In this document: positions 281 through 61,166 of the stretch, in pieces
How the letters are laid out: the number at the start of each line of letters is the position of its first letter
How positions within the stretch are numbered: position 1 is the stretch's first letter
Sequence record: OP177727.1
Origin: Escherichia phage pEC-M2929-1AR.1
Strand: one strand, 5' to 3'
DNA length: 64,000 bases
Notes under the pieces: generated by a model
What the model was told of the DNA's origin: nothing
The model's input: only the letters and a program-made list of their open reading frames with translations
The model's database searches: none
Translations under genes and position numbers: made by a program

Positions 281-356
281 TGGTCGTGGTAAACGGAGTC
301 GAACCGTTGTTTCTCGATTATCGGTCGAGTGTACTAACCATCTGTACGATACCACA
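281..356 (-). tRNA. tRNA, anticodon GAU (Ile-type); CCA encoded
   Basis: Hand-folded cloverleaf: acceptor 7 bp, D stem GTAC/GTAC, anticodon stem CTCGA/TCGAG with loop CCGATAA, T arm AACGG-TTCGACT-CCGTT; position 33 is C, which is unusual. Confidence 0.55.
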
Positions 357-361
357 ATAAT

Positions 362-450
362 TGGCAGCAAGGTGAGGAATCGAACCCCTTGATCTATGGT
401 TTGGAGCCATATTGAGTACCATACTCTTTTAAATCTACCCGGCTATGAGT
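362..450 (-). tRNA. tRNA-like element, possible degenerate tRNA (anticodon-like loop CCA)
   Basis: Good anticodon arm (TATGG-CTCCAAA-CCATA) and T loop TTCGATT with CCA end, but no acceptor or D stem could be paired by hand. Confidence 0.3.
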
Positions 451-502
451 TCCTTGAAGTGTCAATGTAACTTAATCATTACACCAGAAGGGAGGTATTT
501 AT

Positions 503-581
503 TGGAGGCGGGAGTTGGATTTGAACCAACGATCTCCAGCATATGAAACTGGCGAGGACGACCAGACTCCTCTATCCCGCA
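503..581 (-). tRNA. tRNA, anticodon CAU (Met, fMet or Ile2 type)
   Basis: Acceptor TGCGGGA/TCCCGCC with 1-72 mismatch, D stem GAGG/CCTC, anticodon arm CCAGT-TTCATAT-GCTGG, T arm GTTGG-TTCAAAT-CCAAC, CCA encoded. Confidence 0.6.
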
Positions 582-596
582 CAATCTGTAATAATT

Positions 597-672
597 TGGT
601 TGATAGTAAGAGAATCGAACTCTTCTCGCAATGCCTTATGAAAGCACTCGAAACGCCAGCTTCACACTATCA
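597..672 (-). tRNA. tRNA, probable anticodon CAU
   Basis: Acceptor TGATAGT/ACTATCA, T arm AAGAG-TTCGATT-CTCTT, anticodon loop TTCATAA; D arm not cleanly resolved by hand. Confidence 0.5.
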
Positions 673-764
673 ATGGCTAACCCTTTATAACCCGTCTTGG
701 CGTGGTATCCTTGATAGGACGGTGGATATCCGTTGCAAACCCTATGATATCTCTTAGATATGGT

Positions 765-844
765 AGCTAAGGTGAGACTCGAACTCACAATCCCCTGGGG
801 CAATACGTTCTAAGCGTATCGTGTATACCATTCCACCACTTAGC
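765..844 (-). tRNA. tRNA-Leu, anticodon UAG (type II, long variable arm)
   Basis: Acceptor GCTAAGT/CCTTAGC, anticodon arm ATACG-CTTAGAA-CGTAT, variable stem CCCC/GGGG, T arm GTGAG-TTCGAGT-CTCAC; CCA not encoded. Confidence 0.6.
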
Positions 845-922
845 CATAATAAGTACACCACTGTAAGAAGCCTCAATGTGCTATTGACAGTTAACCAAGT
901 CTACTCCTTGGATGGTGTTATT

Positions 923-997
923 TGGTGCAGAGAGATGGTAACGATCCATCCTTTCTACCTTTTCAGGGTAGCACTAATCCGTCTCAGCTATCTCTGC
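923..997 (-). tRNA. tRNA-Phe, anticodon GAA
   Basis: Acceptor GCAGAGA/TCTCTGC, anticodon arm CTACC-CTGAAAA-GGTAG, T stem GATGG/CCATC with atypical T loop ATCGTTA. Confidence 0.55.
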
Positions 998-1002
998 AAA
1001 TT

Positions 1003-1078
1003 TGGTCAGTGCGGCAGGACTCGAACCTGCGACCCGAAGCATCCAAAGCTCCCACGCTACCAACTGCGCTACGCACTG
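1003..1078 (-). tRNA. tRNA-Pro, anticodon UGG
   Basis: Acceptor CAGTGCG/CGCACTG, D stem GCGC/GCGT, anticodon arm GGAGC-TTTGGAT-GCTTC, T arm GCAGG-TTCGAGT-CCTGC, CCA encoded. Confidence 0.65.
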
Positions 1079-1085
1079 TAAATAT

Positions 1086-1160
1086 TGGCTGGAGATCTAG
1101 GAATCGAACCTAGTCATCACGACTTCAAAGGCCGTTGCCTTCCCACTAGGCTAATCTCCA
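1086..1160 (-). tRNA. tRNA-Gln, anticodon UUG
   Basis: Acceptor TGGAGAT/ATCTCCA, anticodon arm ACGGC-CTTTGAA-GTCGT, T arm CTAGG-TTCGATT-CCTAG, CCA encoded. Confidence 0.65.
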
Positions 1161-1259
1161 ATAAAACTAAAAATCACTTAAAAAGAACCGCTAGAGTTTG
1201 AAGGAGAAAACCATGAGCGAAAAGAGAAATTTTCTCTAGCGATTCCATTTAAATAATCT

Positions 1260-1333
1260 TGGAGCGAGTAACAGGACTTGAACCTGCACCTGGAGGGTGG
1301 AAACCTCATATGCTACCATTAACACTATACCCG
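1260..1333 (-). tRNA. tRNA-Gly, anticodon UCC
   Basis: Acceptor GCGGGTA/TACTCGC (one G-U), anticodon stem GAGG/CCTC with loop TTTCCAC, T arm GCAGG-TTCAAGT-CCTGT. Confidence 0.6.
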
Positions 1334-1389
1334 CTTAACAATATTACTCTAACATATTATTAGCCCCTTTGTCAAGAGGCTTTTGATAT

Positions 1390-1719
1390 TTATTTTAAAA
1401 TAGTAGATGCACCACGTCTGTTTAGATATGCAATAGTAAAATCCAAATCACCTATTTCTTCAGGTTCCCACTGACCTTCTAAACCATAACAAGAACAATG
1501 ATATGCGTGTACTTCATAAAACAAAGATGTTTTCATATCATAAAAATAAACGTGAGATTCACCTTCATAATATGCACAATCATAAGTGGCAGAAAGAATT
1601 ACAATGTTATCCTTATCTAACTCTACTTCATAATATCTTTCAACATCTTCAATATCATCAAAACCATCGAAAACATTGATATTAAAATATTTCTCTAACT
1701 CTTTTTCTGTCACATACAC
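1390..1719 (-). CDS. hypothetical protein (109 aa) embedded in tRNA cluster
   Basis: ORF track; AAGGAG RBS 5 nt upstream of ATG on minus strand; flanked by tRNA genes. Confidence 0.6.
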   Translation of the reverse strand: MYVTEKELEKYFNINVFDGFDDIEDVERYYEVELDKDNIVILSATYDCAYYEGESHVYFYDMKTSLFYEVHAYHCSCYGLEGQWEPEEIGDLDFTIAYLNRRGASTILK

Positions 1720-1736
1720 TCCTTTAGAGTTAAAAT

Positions 1737-1811
1737 TGGTGCTCCCACAAGGACTCGAACCCTGATAAGTTGCTTACAAGGCAACCGTAATAGCCGTTAT
1801 ACGATAGGAGC
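1737..1811 (-). tRNA. tRNA-Thr, anticodon UGU
   Basis: Acceptor GCTCCTA/TGGGAGC, anticodon arm GTTGC-CTTGTAA-GCAAC, T arm CAGGG-TTCGAGT-CCTTG, CCA encoded. Confidence 0.65.
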
Positions 1812-1890
1812 AAAATATTTGCTTGGTAGGATTTGATACCTACAATTCTAGAAAATTCTAGAGGTTTCTATTAACTCTACAAGCACTATT

Positions 1891-1975
1891 TGGCGATGGA
1901 TCAAGGATTTGAACCTTGCTAGAACTTTCGTTCACGGATTAACAGTCCGTCGCCCAACCACTAGGCCAATCCATC
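1891..1975 (-). tRNA. type II tRNA (long variable arm) with anticodon GUU (Asn-type anticodon on Ser/Leu/Tyr-type body)
   Basis: Acceptor GATGGAT/ATCCATC, anticodon arm ACGGA-CTGTTAA-TCCGT, variable arm stem GAAC/GTTC, T arm CAAGG-TTCAAAT-CCTTG. Confidence 0.5.
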
Positions 1976-1982
1976 TTTAATT

Positions 1983-2070
1983 TGGTGCAGGTAGTTGGAC
2001 TCGAACCAACGAAGCCCCGAAGGGCAGGAGATTTACAGTCTCCAGCAATTGCCGCTATGCGATACCTACG
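1983..2070 (-). tRNA. tRNA-Tyr, anticodon GUA (type II)
   Basis: Acceptor GTAGGTA/TACCTGC, anticodon arm GGAGA-CTGTAAA-TCTCC, long variable arm, T arm GTTGG-TTCGAGT-CCAAC. Confidence 0.65.
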
Positions 2071-2074
2071 TGTT

Positions 2075-2150
2075 TGGTACATCGTGAAGGATTCGAACCT
2101 TCGACCTTGGAGTTAAAAGCCCCTTGCTCTACCAACTAAGCTAACGATGT
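2075..2150 (-). tRNA. tRNA-Lys, anticodon UUU
   Basis: Acceptor ACATCGT/ACGATGT, D stem GCTT/GAGC, anticodon loop CTTTTAA, T arm GAAGG-TTCGAAT-CCTTC. Confidence 0.65.
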
Positions 2151-2284
2151 ATAAATTATCTTTAAAATAGCCAGTGTTTGCGGCACTTGACTATGAAGTA
2201 TTAGGGTATCGGTAAGATGGTGGAGGCCATCTGCCGAAAGTTTACTCTATTAAAGTAAGATTACAAGCTACATTAAAGATAACT

Positions 2285-2370
2285 TGGCGGTAGATGTAGG
2301 ACTTGAACCTACACGCCGTTTCCGACGACAGTTTAGCAAACTGTTGTGGCTACCATTTCACCAATCTACC
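2285..2370 (-). tRNA. tRNA-Ser, anticodon GCU (type II)
   Basis: Acceptor GGTAGAT/ATCTACC, anticodon arm ACAGT-TTGCTAA-ACTGT, long variable arm, T arm GTAGG-TTCAAGT-CCTAC. Confidence 0.65.
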
Positions 2371-2378
2371 GTTCTTAA

Positions 2379-2531
2379 TTATTCAAAACAACCGGAATCT
2401 TTTTGTTCTGCTTTTACCATACGAATATTTTTACCATCTTCAGATTGTTGAAGATTAGAATACTCATAAACAACTTTATTATCTACAATCTTAACTCCGG
2501 TAACAACCTGTCCAATAGTTTTATAATTCAT
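2379..2531 (-). CDS. small hypothetical protein (50 aa)
   Basis: Track ORF 2379-2579 trimmed to internal ATG at 2531 because the upstream part overlaps a tRNA; AGGAG RBS 4 nt upstream of that ATG. Confidence 0.45.
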   Translation of the reverse strand: MNYKTIGQVVTGVKIVDNKVVYEYSNLQQSEDGKNIRMVKAEQKDSGCFE

Positions 2532-2549
2532 AAAGCTCCTAGTTGAATT

Positions 2550-2639
2550 TGGAGGAAGATAATGGAGTCGAACCATCACCGTATCGCTACAATGGGCCAG
2601 GGTTCAAACCTGGTTGCGCACCGCTGCGCCCTACCTTCC
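2550..2639 (-). tRNA. tRNA-Ser, anticodon UGA (type II)
   Basis: Acceptor GGAAGGT/ATCTTCC, anticodon arm CCAGG-TTTGAAC-CCTGG, T arm GATGG-TTCGACT-CCATT, CCA encoded. Confidence 0.55.
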
Positions 2640-2702
2640 CGTTATCATACTTTAAATCTAACATAAAACTATCTTGTTTGTCAAGTAGTTTTTAAAACTT
2701 TT

Positions 2703-2784
2703 TGGTCGGGGTGACAGGATTCGAACCTGCATACTCCAATTACTCGGTTAACGCCTGATTAGAAGTCAGGTGAGATACACCCCG
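2703..2784 (-). tRNA. tRNA, identity unresolved (candidate anticodon loop CTTCTAA = UCU, Arg-type)
   Basis: Acceptor CGGGGTG/CACCCCG and T arm GCAGG-TTCGAAT-CCTGT are clear; the 47-nt interior could not be folded into a canonical D plus anticodon arm by hand. Confidence 0.4.
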
Positions 2785-2856
2785 TTTTCACAGTAACTAT
2801 AACAAAAAACTAAGTGAATGTCAAGATATTTTTACTAAAATTATTATTTAAATTGA

Positions 2857-2962
2857 AGCCTAGTTATGGAATCGAACCATATTTCGTATTTAGTTAGACA
2901 AAGCGGTCTAACATATTTTTCAGGCTTTGATGGCCTCGGAATTACCAAATACCCTACTAGGC
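2857..2962 (-). ncRNA. oversized tRNA-like RNA (about 106 nt)
   Basis: Perfect 7-bp acceptor-like pairing (GCCTAGT/ACTAGGC) and canonical T arm (TATGG-TTCGATT-CCATA) enclose a 74-nt interior containing hairpin GTTAGAC-CGCTTTG-GTCTAAC. Confidence 0.35.
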
Positions 2963-2964
2963 GT

Positions 2965-3050
2965 TGGTGCAAGTGGAGGGATTCGAACCCTCAATCATTT
3001 AAGCGTTGCGTTTTAAGCACAATGTGTATCACCAATTCCACCACACTTGC
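2965..3050 (-). tRNA. tRNA-Leu, anticodon UAA (type II)
   Basis: Acceptor GCAAGTG/CACTTGC, anticodon arm TTGTG-CTTAAAA-CGCAA, long variable arm, T arm GAGGG-TTCGAAT-CCCTC. Confidence 0.6.
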
Positions 3051-3081
3051 ATATAGGAGATGCATAGCATCTCCTTTTAAA

Positions 3082-3157
3082 TGGTGGTTCCCCAGGGTTA
3101 CAATCCCTGCCCTCGACACTTATGAGGTGTGCGCTCTCGTCAGTGAGCTATGGAACC
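3082..3157 (-). tRNA. tRNA, anticodon CAU (Met-type)
   Basis: Acceptor GGTTCCA/GGGAACC, D arm GCTC-ACTGACGA-GAGC, anticodon loop CTCATAA, T stem CAGGG/CCCTG with atypical loop ATTGTAA. Confidence 0.5.
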
Positions 3158-53800: not shown

Positions 53801-54191
53801 TACGATCTTTCACCCACTGCAATCTCTTTGGGTTGGTATGGCAAGAATGTGTCTTACCTTCATCTTCATAACACAGAAGATCATAATTAAAGGGTAGGAA
53901 GGAGGATAACCCAGCACACGTGAATTGCAATTTCATCTCTTCCAGCGTTTTGCTACGAACCATTTTGAAATGTTCTATATCTTCTTGCGTAGGTTTTTTC
54001 TTTGACATAGTGGTTGCCAGGTAATCCATAAGGCAATTACACAAACCAACATTCTCACGATGCATTGAGGAATGATCTTCCATCCATGCTTTGTAAAATT
54101 CTAACAGCAGTGGACTGCTAAGAGGAACACACATATCAGACTCCTTTATAAATTTACGTTTCATGCCACACATCATATAGCATCTTTTCAT
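53775..54191 (-). CDS. member 1 of paralogous early-protein family
   Basis: Blocks LLEFYKAW, GLCNCLMDY, LPFNYDL, LQWVKDRI; exact start uncertain (several in-frame Met). Confidence 0.5.
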   Translation of the reverse strand: MKRCYMMCGMKRKFIKESDMCVPLSSPLLLEFYKAWMEDHSSMHRENVGLCNCLMDYLATTMSKKKPTQEDIEHFKMVRSKTLEEMKLQFTCAGLSSFLPFNYDLLCYEDEGKTHSCHTNPKRLQWVKDRIADACKDV

Positions 54192-54496
54192 CTATTACAA
54201 GAACAGCAACATAGGAACATCATTAATGAAGGATTTAGTATAGGATTTCCCTATCAATTATTCTATATATACCTATTATTTTTAACACACCCCTTTGTAC
54301 ATAATATAGACAAATAAATATCTATGCCACAAAAATTTTCCGGTATACCCGATTTATTTCGACACACCCCCTTTTCATAAGCGTAAAGTCAATAATATCA
54401 ATAACTTGCCGCAAAATACTGCTCGCTTGCGAGAGGTGCTTAACGCGATTTTCAGCACCCCCCGATTTCTGCCGACCGTCTCCCTCAAATATCAAT

Positions 54497-54526
54497 GAGA
54501 ATTATTATCATTTGCATTATCATTCA
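54497..54526. promoter_or_regulatory. Fur-box-like AT-rich palindrome
   Basis: GAGAATTATTATCATTTGCATTATCATT resembles the enterobacterial Fur box GATAATGATAATCATTATC. Confidence 0.35.
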
Positions 54527-54691
54527 ATGACTTATAAGACTTTTGATTATTTTCTGAACAATAAAGGCACTATTTCACGCAGGATCATTTCATTTGGCAA
54601 GGTGTAGATAGATGTTTAGACTTGCCAAGTCATTGATTTACTTAGAATTTATCTGTTTTGTTGGGAATAGTGCCACCCGTGGAAGATAGCT

Positions 54692-54710
54692 GATAATGAT
54701 TATCATTTGC
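54692..54710. promoter_or_regulatory. Fur-box-like palindrome (GATAATGATTATCATTTGC)
   Basis: Matches 16 of 19 positions of the consensus Fur box GATAATGATAATCATTATC by eye. Confidence 0.45.
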
Positions 54711-54783
54711 ATACTTTCTATACTATAAAACGCCCTAAAAATCAAGATAATTCTAATTTATTGCGCTTTTAAAAAAGTAGGCT

Positions 54784-54871
54784 CAACAAATAGCAATAGT
54801 TAGGGCAACAAATAACAACAAATAGGCTATAACTATACTCAACAAATAGGGAGGTACATTGCAACAAATAG
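54784..54871 (+). repeat. iteron-like direct repeats, five copies of CAACAAATAG/A
   Basis: Copies at 54784, 54807, 54817, 54840, 54862; spacings 23, 10, 23, 22 bp. Confidence 0.7.
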
Positions 54872-54942
54872 GGATAGTATTGTGGCAATAGTATGAAAAA
54901 CCATCTATTCATATATAAATAATTTTGCGCAATAATGGTAAT

Positions 54943-55000
54943 ATTTTTCTTGACAAGAAAGATTTCTTTGTGTTCACATAGCGCCCCCTGGAAGGTGGCG
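54943..55000 (+). promoter_or_regulatory. plus-strand promoter-like element (TTGACA) followed by GC hairpin, pointing into the non-coding region
   Basis: TTGACA at 54943-54948, then TCACATAG and hairpin GCGCC-N11-GGCGC; same architecture as the minus-strand early modules but opposite orientation and no obvious downstream gene. Confidence 0.3.
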
Positions 55001-55299
55001 CATTATGATCATCAGGGTCATTATTCACTATGTTTATTATTGGATAGCTTATATTATAGCCAATGTTCCAAACATTAGCTAATAATAACGCACCGCAACA
55101 ATGTAAGGGAATACAATATACCATGTATATTGTTGCGCTTGCAGTTGTTGCAAGCTACATAAGCACAAATAATAACTATCGGTGATGGTTATTATGTGAG
55201 GTGTGTAGTTGCGTTATTATTAGCCGCCTATGTGTCCGGCATAGGCTGCTAATGATACGTTTGCGAATTATATTTCTTGTTATAGTTATTGTATGAAAT

Positions 55300-55620
55300 G
55301 ATTACGGTATGAAATGATTATTTAGGTAATAGATAGTAAGGTAAAGATTAGATCATAAATAGATAGGATATTAATTATTTAGTAATGTTACTAACGATTT
55401 AATAGTTACTTTGTGCAATAATTTAATAGATTATAGTTATAGTTTTAAAGGTTAGATAGATTATATTTAGCTTAGTAATGATTTATATTAGTTATTGTTG
55501 TTTAATATAAGGTTATCAATGAGATAGTAACAGTAAGTTATAAATAAAAGTAAGATAATTAGTTTTAATTTAGTTAGATAACTTATTATTTTATAGGTTA
55601 GATGGTCTTAAGTTAAGAAT
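55300..55620 (+). repeat. cytosine-depleted, AT-rich low-complexity tract (TAGATA/TTAGTA-rich)
   Basis: Plus strand almost devoid of C over about 320 bp; strong strand asymmetry. Confidence 0.6.
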
Positions 55621-55643
55621 GATTATCATTATTGCATTATTCA
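55618..55643. promoter_or_regulatory. Fur-box-like palindrome (GAATGATTATCATTATTGCATTATTC)
   Basis: Core AATGATTATCATTATT close to the Fur consensus core; a weaker copy lies at about 55675-55692. Confidence 0.4.
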
Positions 55644-55893
55644 GTTTATTGCATAAATAATCAGCTATAAATGAGAATGATTATTATTTAAGAGGAAAGA
55701 TAAGAAAAAGGCTGTTTTTGCCAGATAGTTACATGGAGAAATTAAAAATAAGCGGTCTAAAACACGTTGTAAGCGCCTTATGATCTTCATGGTATGGTTA
55801 TTCATCTGCTCCTTGATTAGCTCGATACCGCGATCTATTCACTTTTTTCGGTGAACGTTTTTGATAGGTAAAAGCTATCATCTTTATTGAGGT

Positions 55894-55923
55894 AAAAAGA
55901 AAGGGCGCTTATTGCGCCCTTGT
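55894..55923 (-). terminator. intrinsic terminator for minus-strand gene 55936-56319
   Basis: Minus strand GGGCGCAATAAGCGCCC followed by TTTCTTTTT. Confidence 0.65.
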
Positions 55924-55935
55924 ATGGAATGTTAT

Positions 55936-56319
55936 TTACTGATAAGCTGGATCGTTTGTTATATCAATCCAATGAGTTAAATTAATTTTATTTTTTGCTT
56001 TCATTTTCTCGATCAACCGTTCGGCTAATGTTTCGGAACGAATATAAACATAATCGCTAAAATCTTGCCCCGTTTCTTCGTCGATCATTTCGCGATATTC
56101 AATTTTCCCGATAAACGCGTGATTCAGCGCATAAGTTTTACCCGTGTACCAGTTATGTAAATGGATCTCGCATTTATAATCGTCGCTATAACCTTCGGTT
56201 GTTCTAACTTCAACCAGATCGCCTTTAAACACTGATAAGCACCACATAGGATCACGATCTACAGCGCCGTTAAAGTCTTTACCGTTTACAGTAGCCGCCA
56301 GGTTGATGATATTGCTCAT
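55936..56319 (-). CDS. hypothetical protein
   Basis: Track ORF 55936-56394 trimmed to ATG at 56319 after AAACGAGGAATCACC; the upstream track portion overlaps the promoter. Confidence 0.5.
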   Translation of the reverse strand: MSNIINLAATVNGKDFNGAVDRDPMWCLSVFKGDLVEVRTTEGYSDDYKCEIHLHNWYTGKTYALNHAFIGKIEYREMIDEETGQDFSDYVYIRSETLAERLIEKMKAKNKINLTHWIDITNDPAYQ

Positions 56320-56342
56320 GGTGATTCCTCGTTTACCGTTTA

Positions 56343-56410
56343 AAATGATTTGCCCTACGTGATACATCTTATTATAAGGGCGATCCGGTGTCAATAGGTA
56401 GAATTGTAAA
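56343..56410 (-). promoter_or_regulatory. early promoter module, hairpin-less variant (TTGACA-N17-TAAGAT, then GTATCACGTAGGGC)
   Basis: Minus-strand TTGACA at 56404-56409, conserved initial transcribed motif TATCACGTAGGGC. Confidence 0.5.
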
Positions 56411-56740: not shown

Positions 56741-56772
56741 AAAAAAGGGCGCTTAGTGCGCCCCTTTCTTTT
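56741..56772. terminator. bidirectional intrinsic terminator (AAAAAAGGGCGCTTAGTGCGCCCCTTTCTTTT)
   Basis: GC stem flanked by A-run and T-run, downstream of 56781 gene on minus strand. Confidence 0.7.
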
Positions 56773-57258: not shown

Positions 57259-57645
57259 TTATTCAATATAAATCAAATTATCTTCACCAATGTAAGCCGA
57301 CACGTCCGGCATGACCTCGGCGGCACTGGTTAGGCGGTTCGCCGTGTTAGGGGTATATATTTCAGGGCGATCCCAAAAACCAACGCCGTGACCGTTACGG
57401 GTAAAATGTAAATCATTCCCGATCTGGTTTGCTGTTGCGCCGTCGCTCATTGCCTCAGAGATAGCCGCATCATTGGCATCACAATAAGCCGCTACGTCAT
57501 GAATGATCCGCTGATGGGCTTGATCTGAAAAATCATAATCGCCTAGATTCTCAATATATTCCCCATTGTGATCCGTCGCTGGTTCGGCAAAAATAAAGGC
57601 TTCTTTATAGCCGTTGATGATTTCAATAATGATTTCTGTTTTCAT
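57259..57645 (-). CDS. hypothetical protein (128 aa)
   Basis: ORF track; noticeably GC-richer coding sequence than most of window. Confidence 0.5.
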   Translation of the reverse strand: MKTEIIIEIINGYKEAFIFAEPATDHNGEYIENLGDYDFSDQAHQRIIHDVAAYCDANDAAISEAMSDGATANQIGNDLHFTRNGHGVGFWDRPEIYTPNTANRLTSAAEVMPDVSAYIGEDNLIYIE

Positions 57646-61137: not shown

Positions 61138-61166
61138 TAAAAGGGCGCTTATTGCGCCCTTTTTGT
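61138..61166. terminator. bidirectional intrinsic terminator (AAAAGGGCGCTTATTGCGCCCTTTTTG)
   Basis: GC stem flanked by A-run and T-run, immediately after stop of small basic gene. Confidence 0.7.

Follow-up and report, generated by a model that had tools for sequence, protein, structure and literature searches.

What is the large gene-free gap at positions 54192–55935 of the window, that is, of the whole 64,000-nucleotide stretch of Escherichia phage pEC-M2929-1AR.1 (OP177727.1) analyzed here? The gap measures 1,744 bp and lies between the start codon of a gp001-like gene at 54191 and the stop codon of a gp248-like gene at 55936, both on the minus strand. An earlier description made from the letters alone (the sequence-only reading) had called it the largest gene-free stretch, of 1.7 kb, and this is borne out; the tRNA block at 281–3157 (minus strand) is a longer stretch free of protein genes, but it holds 16 tRNA genes, including three for tRNA-Met. 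What that description missed is the core identity of the region, that of a genome terminus. In the best overall explanation, to which we assign a probability of roughly 0.85, the gap represents the physical end of the genome of a phi92-like myovirus, with its direct terminal repeat (DTR) collapsed to one copy.

The region is 100% identical to Escherichia phage vB_EcoM_AMO3598 (PQ226818.1), a phi92-like member of the genus Justusliebigvirus in the Stephanstirmvirinae. The window corresponds to the last 64 kb of this 145-kb genome, window position 1 being record position 81426. About 55 Justusliebigvirus genomes match the region at 88–98%, and in the records annotated after phi92 the gap is bordered by homologues of the last gene (gp248) on one side and of the first genes (gp001/002) on the other. 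Its layout comprises the leader of the first early operon (54192–54440), one copy of a 343-bp repeat (54441–54783), and 1.15 kb of right-end non-coding DNA. The feature on which the assignment turns is the repeat:

54441–54783, no strand assigned: DTR, one collapsed copy, placed by homology to annotated relatives and expected at both ends of the virion DNA.

The 343-bp DTRs annotated at the left and right ends of Salmonella phage UAB_1 and of phi92 (in NC_023693, DTR-L 1–343 and DTR-R 148270–148612) align exactly to 54441–54783. For phage BME3, whose record begins at window position 54442, a 342-bp DTR was obtained with PhageTerm (PMC12210895), and the genomes of Stephanstirmvirinae are stated to end in direct terminal repeats (PMC12695924, 2025). 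In the sister genus Phapecoctavirus, both ends of the Mt1B1_P17 record carry an exact 328-bp repeat that has these edge motifs, and many related records start or stop at these edge positions. The edges agree within 1 nt among phi92, UAB_1, BME3, Mt1B1_P17 and WPEC4. Among the 9 Justusliebigvirus compared, the DTR is 94% conserved and both of its edges are invariant. One consideration weighs against the assignment: the proposed termini of this particular phage are carried over from its relatives by homology. The terminus itself is already known and annotated for phi92. Since the present assembly is permuted and contains a single repeat copy, the gap reads as a concatemer junction.

The two edges of the repeat carry related motifs:

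54435–54447, no strand assigned: right-end cut-site motif GGTGCT/TAACGCG, putative cut at 54440/54441 (± 1 nt), invariant in the 9 Justusliebigvirus.
54778–54793, no strand assigned: left-end cut-site motif TAGGCT/CAACAAATAG, putative cut at 54783/54784, sharing GCT/YAAC with the right edge.

The right-end motif is also found in phAPEC8, ZCKP1, KP13-26, Tr1 and AV126, as well as at the edge of the 328-bp repeat of Mt1B1_P17; its form in Phapecoctavirus is AGTGCT/TAACGCG. The left edge, read in the window as TAGGCT/CAACAAAT beside GGTGCT/TAACGCG at the right edge, appears as GGTGCT or GATGCT/CAACATAT in phAPEC8, Tr1, WPEC4 and Mt1B1_P17. GCT/YAAC is present at both repeat edges in two genera, and we infer that it is the probable terminase cut motif. 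Terminase would recognize and cut the concatemer at two sites sharing this motif. T7-type phages duplicate their terminal repeat during packaging, and the DTR between the two cuts would be duplicated in the same manner.

Immediately to the right of the left-end cut lies a set of short repeats:

54784–54872, plus strand: array of five CAACAAATAG copies, a variable-number repeat of the cut-site flank.

Copies of CAACAAATA begin at 54784, 54806, 54816, 54840 and 54862, with spacings of 22, 10, 24 and 22, and no others exist in the 64 kb. These are the five direct repeats that the sequence-only reading had located correctly and had taken for iterons suggestive of a replication origin or a protein-binding array. 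This interpretation does not survive comparison with relatives that are 92–98% identical. There are five CAACAAATAG copies here, three in J-01, two in outra and muut, one in phi92, UAB_1 and PATM, and no exact copy in arall and alia. Conservation within the genus drops to ~21% past the first copy of the array, as against 94–100% in the remainder of the gap. A copy number of 0 to 5 together with this low conservation indicates a variable-number repeat of the cut-site flank rather than a conserved initiator array. The first CAACAAATAG copy is the sequence immediately outside the left-end cut, and the so-called iterons may have arisen from it by slippage or recombination, as copies of the outer half of a single cut site. 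Short repeat arrays also flank the terminal repeat of T7.

The DTR has undergone one further rearrangement. In this phage alone, a 109-bp segment at 54566–54674 with GGCACTATT/AATAGTGCC at its borders is inverted; once reverse-complemented it is 90% identical to UAB_1, and the closest relative, EC.P2, is 99% identical after the segment is flipped. The other orientation occurs in 54 of 55 records, a sharing that led us to reject a phase-variable switch. The flip probably arose recently and in this phage alone; an assembly error is the less likely explanation. The inverted segment also contains ATCTGTT at 54651–54657, which in the T7 concatemer junction is the class II pause and termination signal of T7 RNA polymerase. 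It was rejected as such a signal here and is probably a chance occurrence, with ~0.2 expected and in a phage without a T7-type polymerase.

If the gap is a genome end, what are the palindromes within it? The sequence-only reading had pointed to three or four sites resembling the Fur box, and there are four, with 19-mers at 54497, 54692, 55615 and 55673:

54491–54521, no strand assigned: Fur-like cluster A, core TGAGAATTATTATCA at 54496–54510, three overlapping 19-mers at 54491, 54497 and 54503.
54691–54705, no strand assigned: Fur-like box B, TGATAATGATTATCA; its 19-mer at 54692–54710 has 2 mismatches, and it has 0 to the 7-1-7 motif TGATAATNATTATCA.
55614–55686, no strand assigned: Fur-like boxes C (TAAGAATGATTATCA, 55614–55628) and D (TGAGAATGATTATTA, 55672–55686), 58 bp apart and flanking TTGCATAAA.

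Measured against the 19-mer consensus GATAATGATAATCATTATC, the site at 54692 (GATAATGATTATCATTTGC) has 2 mismatches, that at 55615 has 3, that at 54497 has 4, and that at 55673 has 5. Two sites with at most 3 mismatches fall in the region, where 0.007 are expected from 300 dinucleotide shuffles, and none falls elsewhere in the 64 kb. Genome-wide there are five such sites against 0.15 expected, all of them in two non-coding hubs, namely the gap and a second hub described below. The sites of box A are phased by 6 bp, and boxes B to D are single sites; overlapping sites phased by 3 or 6 bp are a hallmark of footprinted Fur clusters (PMC2189734).

Comparison with relatives agrees with the motif scores in bearing out the Fur-like sites. 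Boxes A to C occupy fixed positions in all Justusliebigvirus examined, box B being 99% conserved and box C invariant in the genus. In Phapecoctavirus, boxes (including a homologue of box B) stand at the homologous places despite flanks that are only ~60–65% identical. Av-05, a member of the Vequintavirinae, has a two-box module, 60 bp apart and flanking TTGCATAAA, beside a homologous terminator. A position weight matrix built only from nine phage boxes was also used in reverse on the E. coli K-12 genome (positions 600000–649000). Its top four matches were fepB/entC (twice), fepD/entS and fepA/fes, and these are the Fur-regulated promoters of the 49 kb scanned.

Taken together, the enrichment, the phasing, the conservation and the reverse test with the matrix imply that host Fur should bind. 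The palindromes appear to be operator-grade sequences, for which binding by host Fur is a reasonable idea, and host Fur probably occupies them in vivo. The boxes most likely overlap weak sigma70 promoters and would in that way make non-coding or early transcription at the genome end dependent on iron status. An action at the adjacent meltable tract is also conceivable. Two sets of observations pull the other way. First, half of the boxes use the half-site TGAGAAT rather than TGATAAT, some in the symmetric form TGAGAAT-N-ATTCTCA, and this bias could point to a different protein. Second, when the surroundings of the boxes and the sequence ahead of the folded element described below are scanned for sigma70 promoters, the scores are no better than those of shuffles. 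Only weak sigma70-like matches overlap the boxes, no more than in shuffled sequence, so no promoter was assigned to the boxes or to the folded element.

The half-site bias is the starting point of an alternative in which the boxes bind a phage protein (a regulator, an initiator or the small terminase subunit), their likeness to Fur operators being incidental or mimicry. TGAGAAT is consistently preferred over TGATAAT, symmetric forms exist, and tandem dyads spaced 23–29 bp apart beside AT-rich DNA recall the sites of the lambda O protein. However, the boxes occur in three unrelated groups (Stephanstirmvirinae, Vequintavirinae and T5-like phages) whose common factor is the host, and a matrix made from phage boxes picks out host Fur promoters specifically, which means that Fur would compete for the sites anyway. 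We regard a phage ligand as possible but consider it the less probable answer.

The evidence from T5-like phages comes from Gostya9 (NC_047979, locus 1350–1600) and PECP14 (243–870), both of which contain tandem arrays of the same Fur-like boxes. The long terminal repeat of these phages includes an untranslated injection-stop region, where the arrays lie beside two TGTGGATAA DnaA boxes. An analysis of the T5 injection-stop region does not mention Fur (bioRxiv 10.1101/866236). In a separate scan of IMG/VR with a 16-mer, 8 of 10 loci were rejected as chance matches and only 2 of 10 were true relatives.

A second non-coding hub lies outside the window, at 1845–2520 of record PQ226818.1, 10 kb from the gap. 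Between record positions 2100 and 2520 it carries five tandem Fur-like boxes, several of them symmetric TGAGAAT-N-ATTCTCA, followed by three ~70-bp AT-rich direct repeats that are the second most AT-rich DNA of the genome. At each hub a cluster of boxes adjoins an AT-rich extreme, so that both hubs pair a box array with highly meltable DNA.

Boxes in such numbers could also act as a sponge: each genome copy carries nine strong boxes, which, as replication raised their number, would titrate Fur and derepress iron uptake for the iron-dependent enzymes of the phage. Titration by multicopy boxes is the principle of the Fur titration assay. The occurrence of operator-grade boxes in two clusters, the annotation of iron-dependent anaerobic ribonucleotide reductase genes in this phage, and the similar arrays in unrelated T5-like phages all speak for this idea. 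On the other hand, the boxes of different subfamilies keep the same places with respect to the terminator, the DTR and the AT-rich tracts, which suggests a local function in cis rather than bulk titration. Fur is, moreover, abundant in E. coli, so that a high copy number late in infection would be needed. Bulk titration is accordingly the explanation of the boxes to which we give very little weight. Binding of host Fur at fixed sites is the interpretation retained here. The literature searched mentions no Fur boxes for phi92-, rV5- or T5-like (virulent) coliphages, and the Fur arrays of these phages are apparently undescribed. To our knowledge, host iron regulation has so far been tied to cargo genes of temperate phages and not to the control DNA of lytic phages. 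Operator-grade boxes at conserved, fixed positions in the terminal repeat and hubs of a virulent phage are worth experiments.

The right-end DNA between the CAACAAATAG repeats and the AT-rich tract contains a third element, which the earlier description had passed over:

55073–55259, plus strand: conserved structured element of 187 nt with a covariation-supported fold.
55078–55091/55211–55224: helix P1.
55095–55109/55136–55151: helix P2.
55153–55160/55203–55210: helix P3.
55172–55180/55184–55192: helix P3a.
55226–55233/55239–55246: helix P4.

Identity within the genus is 97–98% for the element and ~92% for the region as a whole, and in other genera the element is the best-conserved piece. The RNAalifold consensus contains 53 pairs, 13 of them doubly compensated, among 12 sequences from at least 5 lineages. 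Paired cells amount to 99.7%, compared with 93.4% in shuffles, none of the 500 attaining the real figure; the signal is lost when the pairing partners are slid. Metagenomic copies add further compensated variants. The folding energy is −78.4 kcal/mol on the plus strand (z = −7.6) and −63.2 kcal/mol on the minus strand (z = −6.1), and the plus strand carries three invariant G.U pairs. The better folding and the G.U pairs indicate that the functional strand is probably the plus strand of the window, opposite in sense to the flanking genes. Searched with a covariance model, each genome yields a single copy, and the rV5-like Av-05 (Vequintavirinae) yields none. In Rfam 15 the sole match is BsrG (18 bits, E = 0.49), below the gathering score of 55, and the element is apparently undescribed.

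On balance we lean, by a small measure, toward an RNA made from the window plus strand. Two absences count against it: there is no intrinsic terminator after the element on the plus strand and no conserved promoter upstream. The same lack of a convincing promoter or terminator would fit an element that acts as single-stranded DNA, either as a snap-back or priming structure in the duplication of the terminal repeat or as a recognition structure in packaging. The element is situated 290–475 bp beyond the left-end cut; extension starting at a nick at 54783/54784 would displace the strand that carries it, and its perfect outer stem measures 14–15 bp. A hairpin intermediate has been proposed for the processing of T7 concatemers. 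Yet three invariant and seven variable G.U pairs are found on one strand only and several internal helices co-vary, a pattern typical of RNA, and the element is absent from the Vequintavirinae, which have DTRs too. A role as DNA seems the less likely of the two. A strongly covarying element without a known family, a few hundred bases from a packaging cut site, is worth experiments in either case.

Could the gap nevertheless be a replication origin? The case rests on a tract beyond the folded element:

55290–55610, plus strand: C-depleted tract, 80% A+T, 3.4% C and 17% G.

The scarcity of cytosine noted in the sequence-only reading is real, with 11 C in 321 nt. The minimum number of C per 320 nt is 10 here, while elsewhere in the window the minimum is 25 and the mean 57 ± 12. 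No other 300 bp of the 145-kb genome are as AT-rich, and other genera have a T-rich tract with G>C at the same place, less extreme. In the origin hypothesis an array beside the meltable tract would start DNA synthesis, by initiator melting or by transcript priming in the style of T7 or of T4 oriF/oriG. The extreme composition, the boxes C and D that abut the tract, and the second hub, where a box array and the second most AT-rich DNA are again combined, are in its favor. The excess of G over C on the plus strand would also favor a stable RNA-DNA hybrid for a plus-strand transcript. But the repeats proposed as iterons are not conserved and are not adjacent to the tract, which starts ~420 bp away and abuts boxes C and D instead. 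The elements behind an origin here would thus be the boxes and the tract rather than the CAACAAATAG repeats. Cumulative GC skew does not turn at the locus (136 kb); over the whole genome it turns at ~7, 47, 88 and 123 kb, following gene-strand blocks. No close match to a DnaA box was noticed by eye in the region, where no formal scan was run. In addition, the second hub, with its five tandem dyad boxes and three ~70-bp AT-rich repeats, looks more origin-like than the gap. We consider an origin in the gap improbable; it is compatible with the terminus assignment and not an alternative to it.

The strand asymmetry of the tract admits another role. RNA of the minus strand would be G-poor, with C>G, and transcription reading through from the right end on this strand could yield an unstructured, Rho-loadable RNA, the tract serving as an insulator that halts transcription before the DTR and the early genes. 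The 321 nt of minus-strand RNA would contain 54 C, 11 G and 27 YC dimers, and the tract follows the last gene's intrinsic terminator at a distance of 290 nt. Other genera also keep C>G on the minus strand. A content of only 17% C is, however, low for typical Rho-loading sites, and the extreme AT-richness fits a role in unwinding or bending as well. An insulator thus seems doubtful.

Several features complete the two flanks of the gap:

54192–54440, minus strand: leader and putative promoter region of the first left-end early operon, whose gp001 homologue starts at 54191.
55811–55900, no strand assigned: conserved non-coding block with core TAGCTCGATACCGCG, 99% conserved within the genus and recognizable in Av-05 (Vequintavirinae).
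55901–55921, minus strand: intrinsic terminator of the gp248 homologue (55936–56394), with an 8-bp stem, 6 GC pairs and a TCTTTTT tail.
55665–55805, minus strand: open reading frame (ORF) of 46 amino acids with an AAGGAG Shine-Dalgarno sequence, intact in 9 of 9 Justusliebigvirus and broken in Phapecoctavirus, of uncertain coding status.

The repeated ACACCCC motifs of the sequence-only reading, at 54287 and 54364, turn out to be part of a 25-nt module with two copies in the leader (54272–54296 and 54349–54373). Sigma70-like sites occur there on the minus strand, from −35 at 54285 to −10 at 54257 and from −35 at 54330 to −10 at 54303. The core CCCTATCAATTAT...ACACCCC is kept in Phapecoctavirus, the leader is 96% identical within the genus, and we infer that the modules are tandem early promoters. 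At the other flank, the terminator begins 14 nt past the stop codon of the gp248 homologue and is annotated as a terminator in PATM and phAPEC8; the 90-bp conserved block sits just upstream of this shared terminator. Its hairpin, AAAGGGCGCTTATTGCGCCCTT (55900–55921), recurs exactly at 61140–61161 and at 91% identity at 56741–56763. It looks like a terminator cassette reused between early genes, and this recurrence accounts for the second place in most BLAST hits.

Protein-coding capacity in the gap is slight. ORFs of 71, 57, 47, 47 and 40 amino acids were rejected as hidden genes, being absent or interrupted by stops in relatives, and the eight hypothetical proteins annotated here in PQ226818 are likely overcalls. 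The 46-amino-acid ORF, whose last seven codons coincide with Fur-like box D, may encode a genus-specific small hydrophobic peptide. A search of the region for known RNA families (Rfam 15) and tRNAs returned none, and tblastn for a phage-encoded Fur, with an approximate query sequence, gave no match better than E = 6. Chance in AT-rich DNA was rejected as an explanation of the gap features on the strength of the Fur-site shuffles, the uniqueness of CAACAAATA and the 94–100% conservation of the gap outside the array; the hub is real and under strong constraint.

Other observations concern DNA outside the gap or the records that match it. In the second hub, record positions 1845–2001 contain a near-consensus sigma70 promoter (TTGACA-17-TATACT) followed by a GC-rich sequence of ~125 nt. 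This sequence is 80–85% conserved in ~250 records of rV5-, PVP-SE1- and CR9-like phages from several host genera, has no match in Rfam, and is a candidate for a widespread phage small RNA. A local GC spike at 57300–57500, inside the early-gene block of the window, reaches 53%, compared with a genome mean of ~37%. Four records labeled "Campylobacter phage" (MG065639, MG065645, MG065656 and MG065689; host given as C. jejuni) match the region at ~92% identity; probably they were given the wrong host, or else they are contaminant phages.

Read in phi92 orientation, which is that of the window minus strand, the junction would run as follows. The last gene and its terminator are followed by boxes D and C, the AT-rich, strand-asymmetric tract and the 187-nt folded element. 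Then come the cut-site flank CAACAAATAG, amplified in this phage, the DTR with boxes B and A, three tandem promoter-like modules, and the first early gene. The terminus assignment matters for the orientation of these genomes and for the engineering or rebooting of broad-host-range therapeutic phages. A broader proposal combines two claims: that three unrelated coliphage groups (phi92/phAPEC8-, rV5- and T5-like) deliberately carry Fur-operator arrays, placed in their terminal repeats and beside the DNA that melts most easily, and that the 187-nt element represents a new RNA family acting at the genome end. The conjunction is speculative and we offer it tentatively. If it were true, Fur would be a host factor recruited to gate early or non-coding transcription, or the start of replication, by iron supply, or else a factor titrated to unlock iron uptake.

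How does this junction compare with known systems? The T5 left-terminal-repeat injection-stop region is likewise a large, conserved, untranslated and repeat-rich DNA in or near a terminal repeat, but it belongs to an unrelated phage family with a 10-kb repeat and two-step injection, and in the T5-like Gostya9 it contains DnaA boxes, of which none was noticed by eye in the region studied here. A lambda-type iteron origin has four dyad-symmetric 19-bp initiator sites beside an AT-rich region, and dyad-symmetric boxes adjoining very AT-rich DNA are also present here, most clearly in the second hub. Unlike the lambda sites, the CAACAAATAG repeats are neither dyad-symmetric nor conserved nor adjacent to the AT tract, and the locus has no identified initiator gene and no skew signal. 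The E. coli Fur operators of fepA-fes, fepD-entS and fepB-entC resemble the phage boxes in having 0–3 mismatches, in their overlaps phased by 6 bp and in mutual recognition by the weight matrix. The phage boxes differ in that they are predicted from sequence, are biased to the TGAGAAT half-site and lie in the terminal repeat and non-coding hubs, not before iron genes.

The pRNA of phi29 is a structured RNA of ~170 nt encoded at the genome end and used in packaging. The folded element resembles it as a structured element of similar size beside a genome terminus; it differs in showing no sequence or Rfam similarity, in belonging to a different packaging system and in being only putatively an RNA. 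The T7/T3 junction, reportedly described by Dunn and Studier in 1983, is said to consist of a 160-bp terminal repeat, the SRL and SRR arrays, and then the tandem early promoters A1–A3. It shares with the present junction a short, non-permuted terminal repeat, short direct repeats just outside one repeat edge, and a run of tandem promoter-like modules that separates the repeat from the first early gene. There is no sequence homology between the two, and the window phage is a myovirus without its own RNA polymerase; its repeats are one-sided and variable in number, and its Fur boxes and folded element have no T7 counterpart. The closest parallel is with the termini of phi92 and other Stephanstirmvirinae. 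The window record differs from these in being permuted, with a single repeat copy, five flank repeats instead of one, and a private 109-bp inversion, but it shares with them a homologous 343-bp repeat, the same repeat edges and the same flanking genes.

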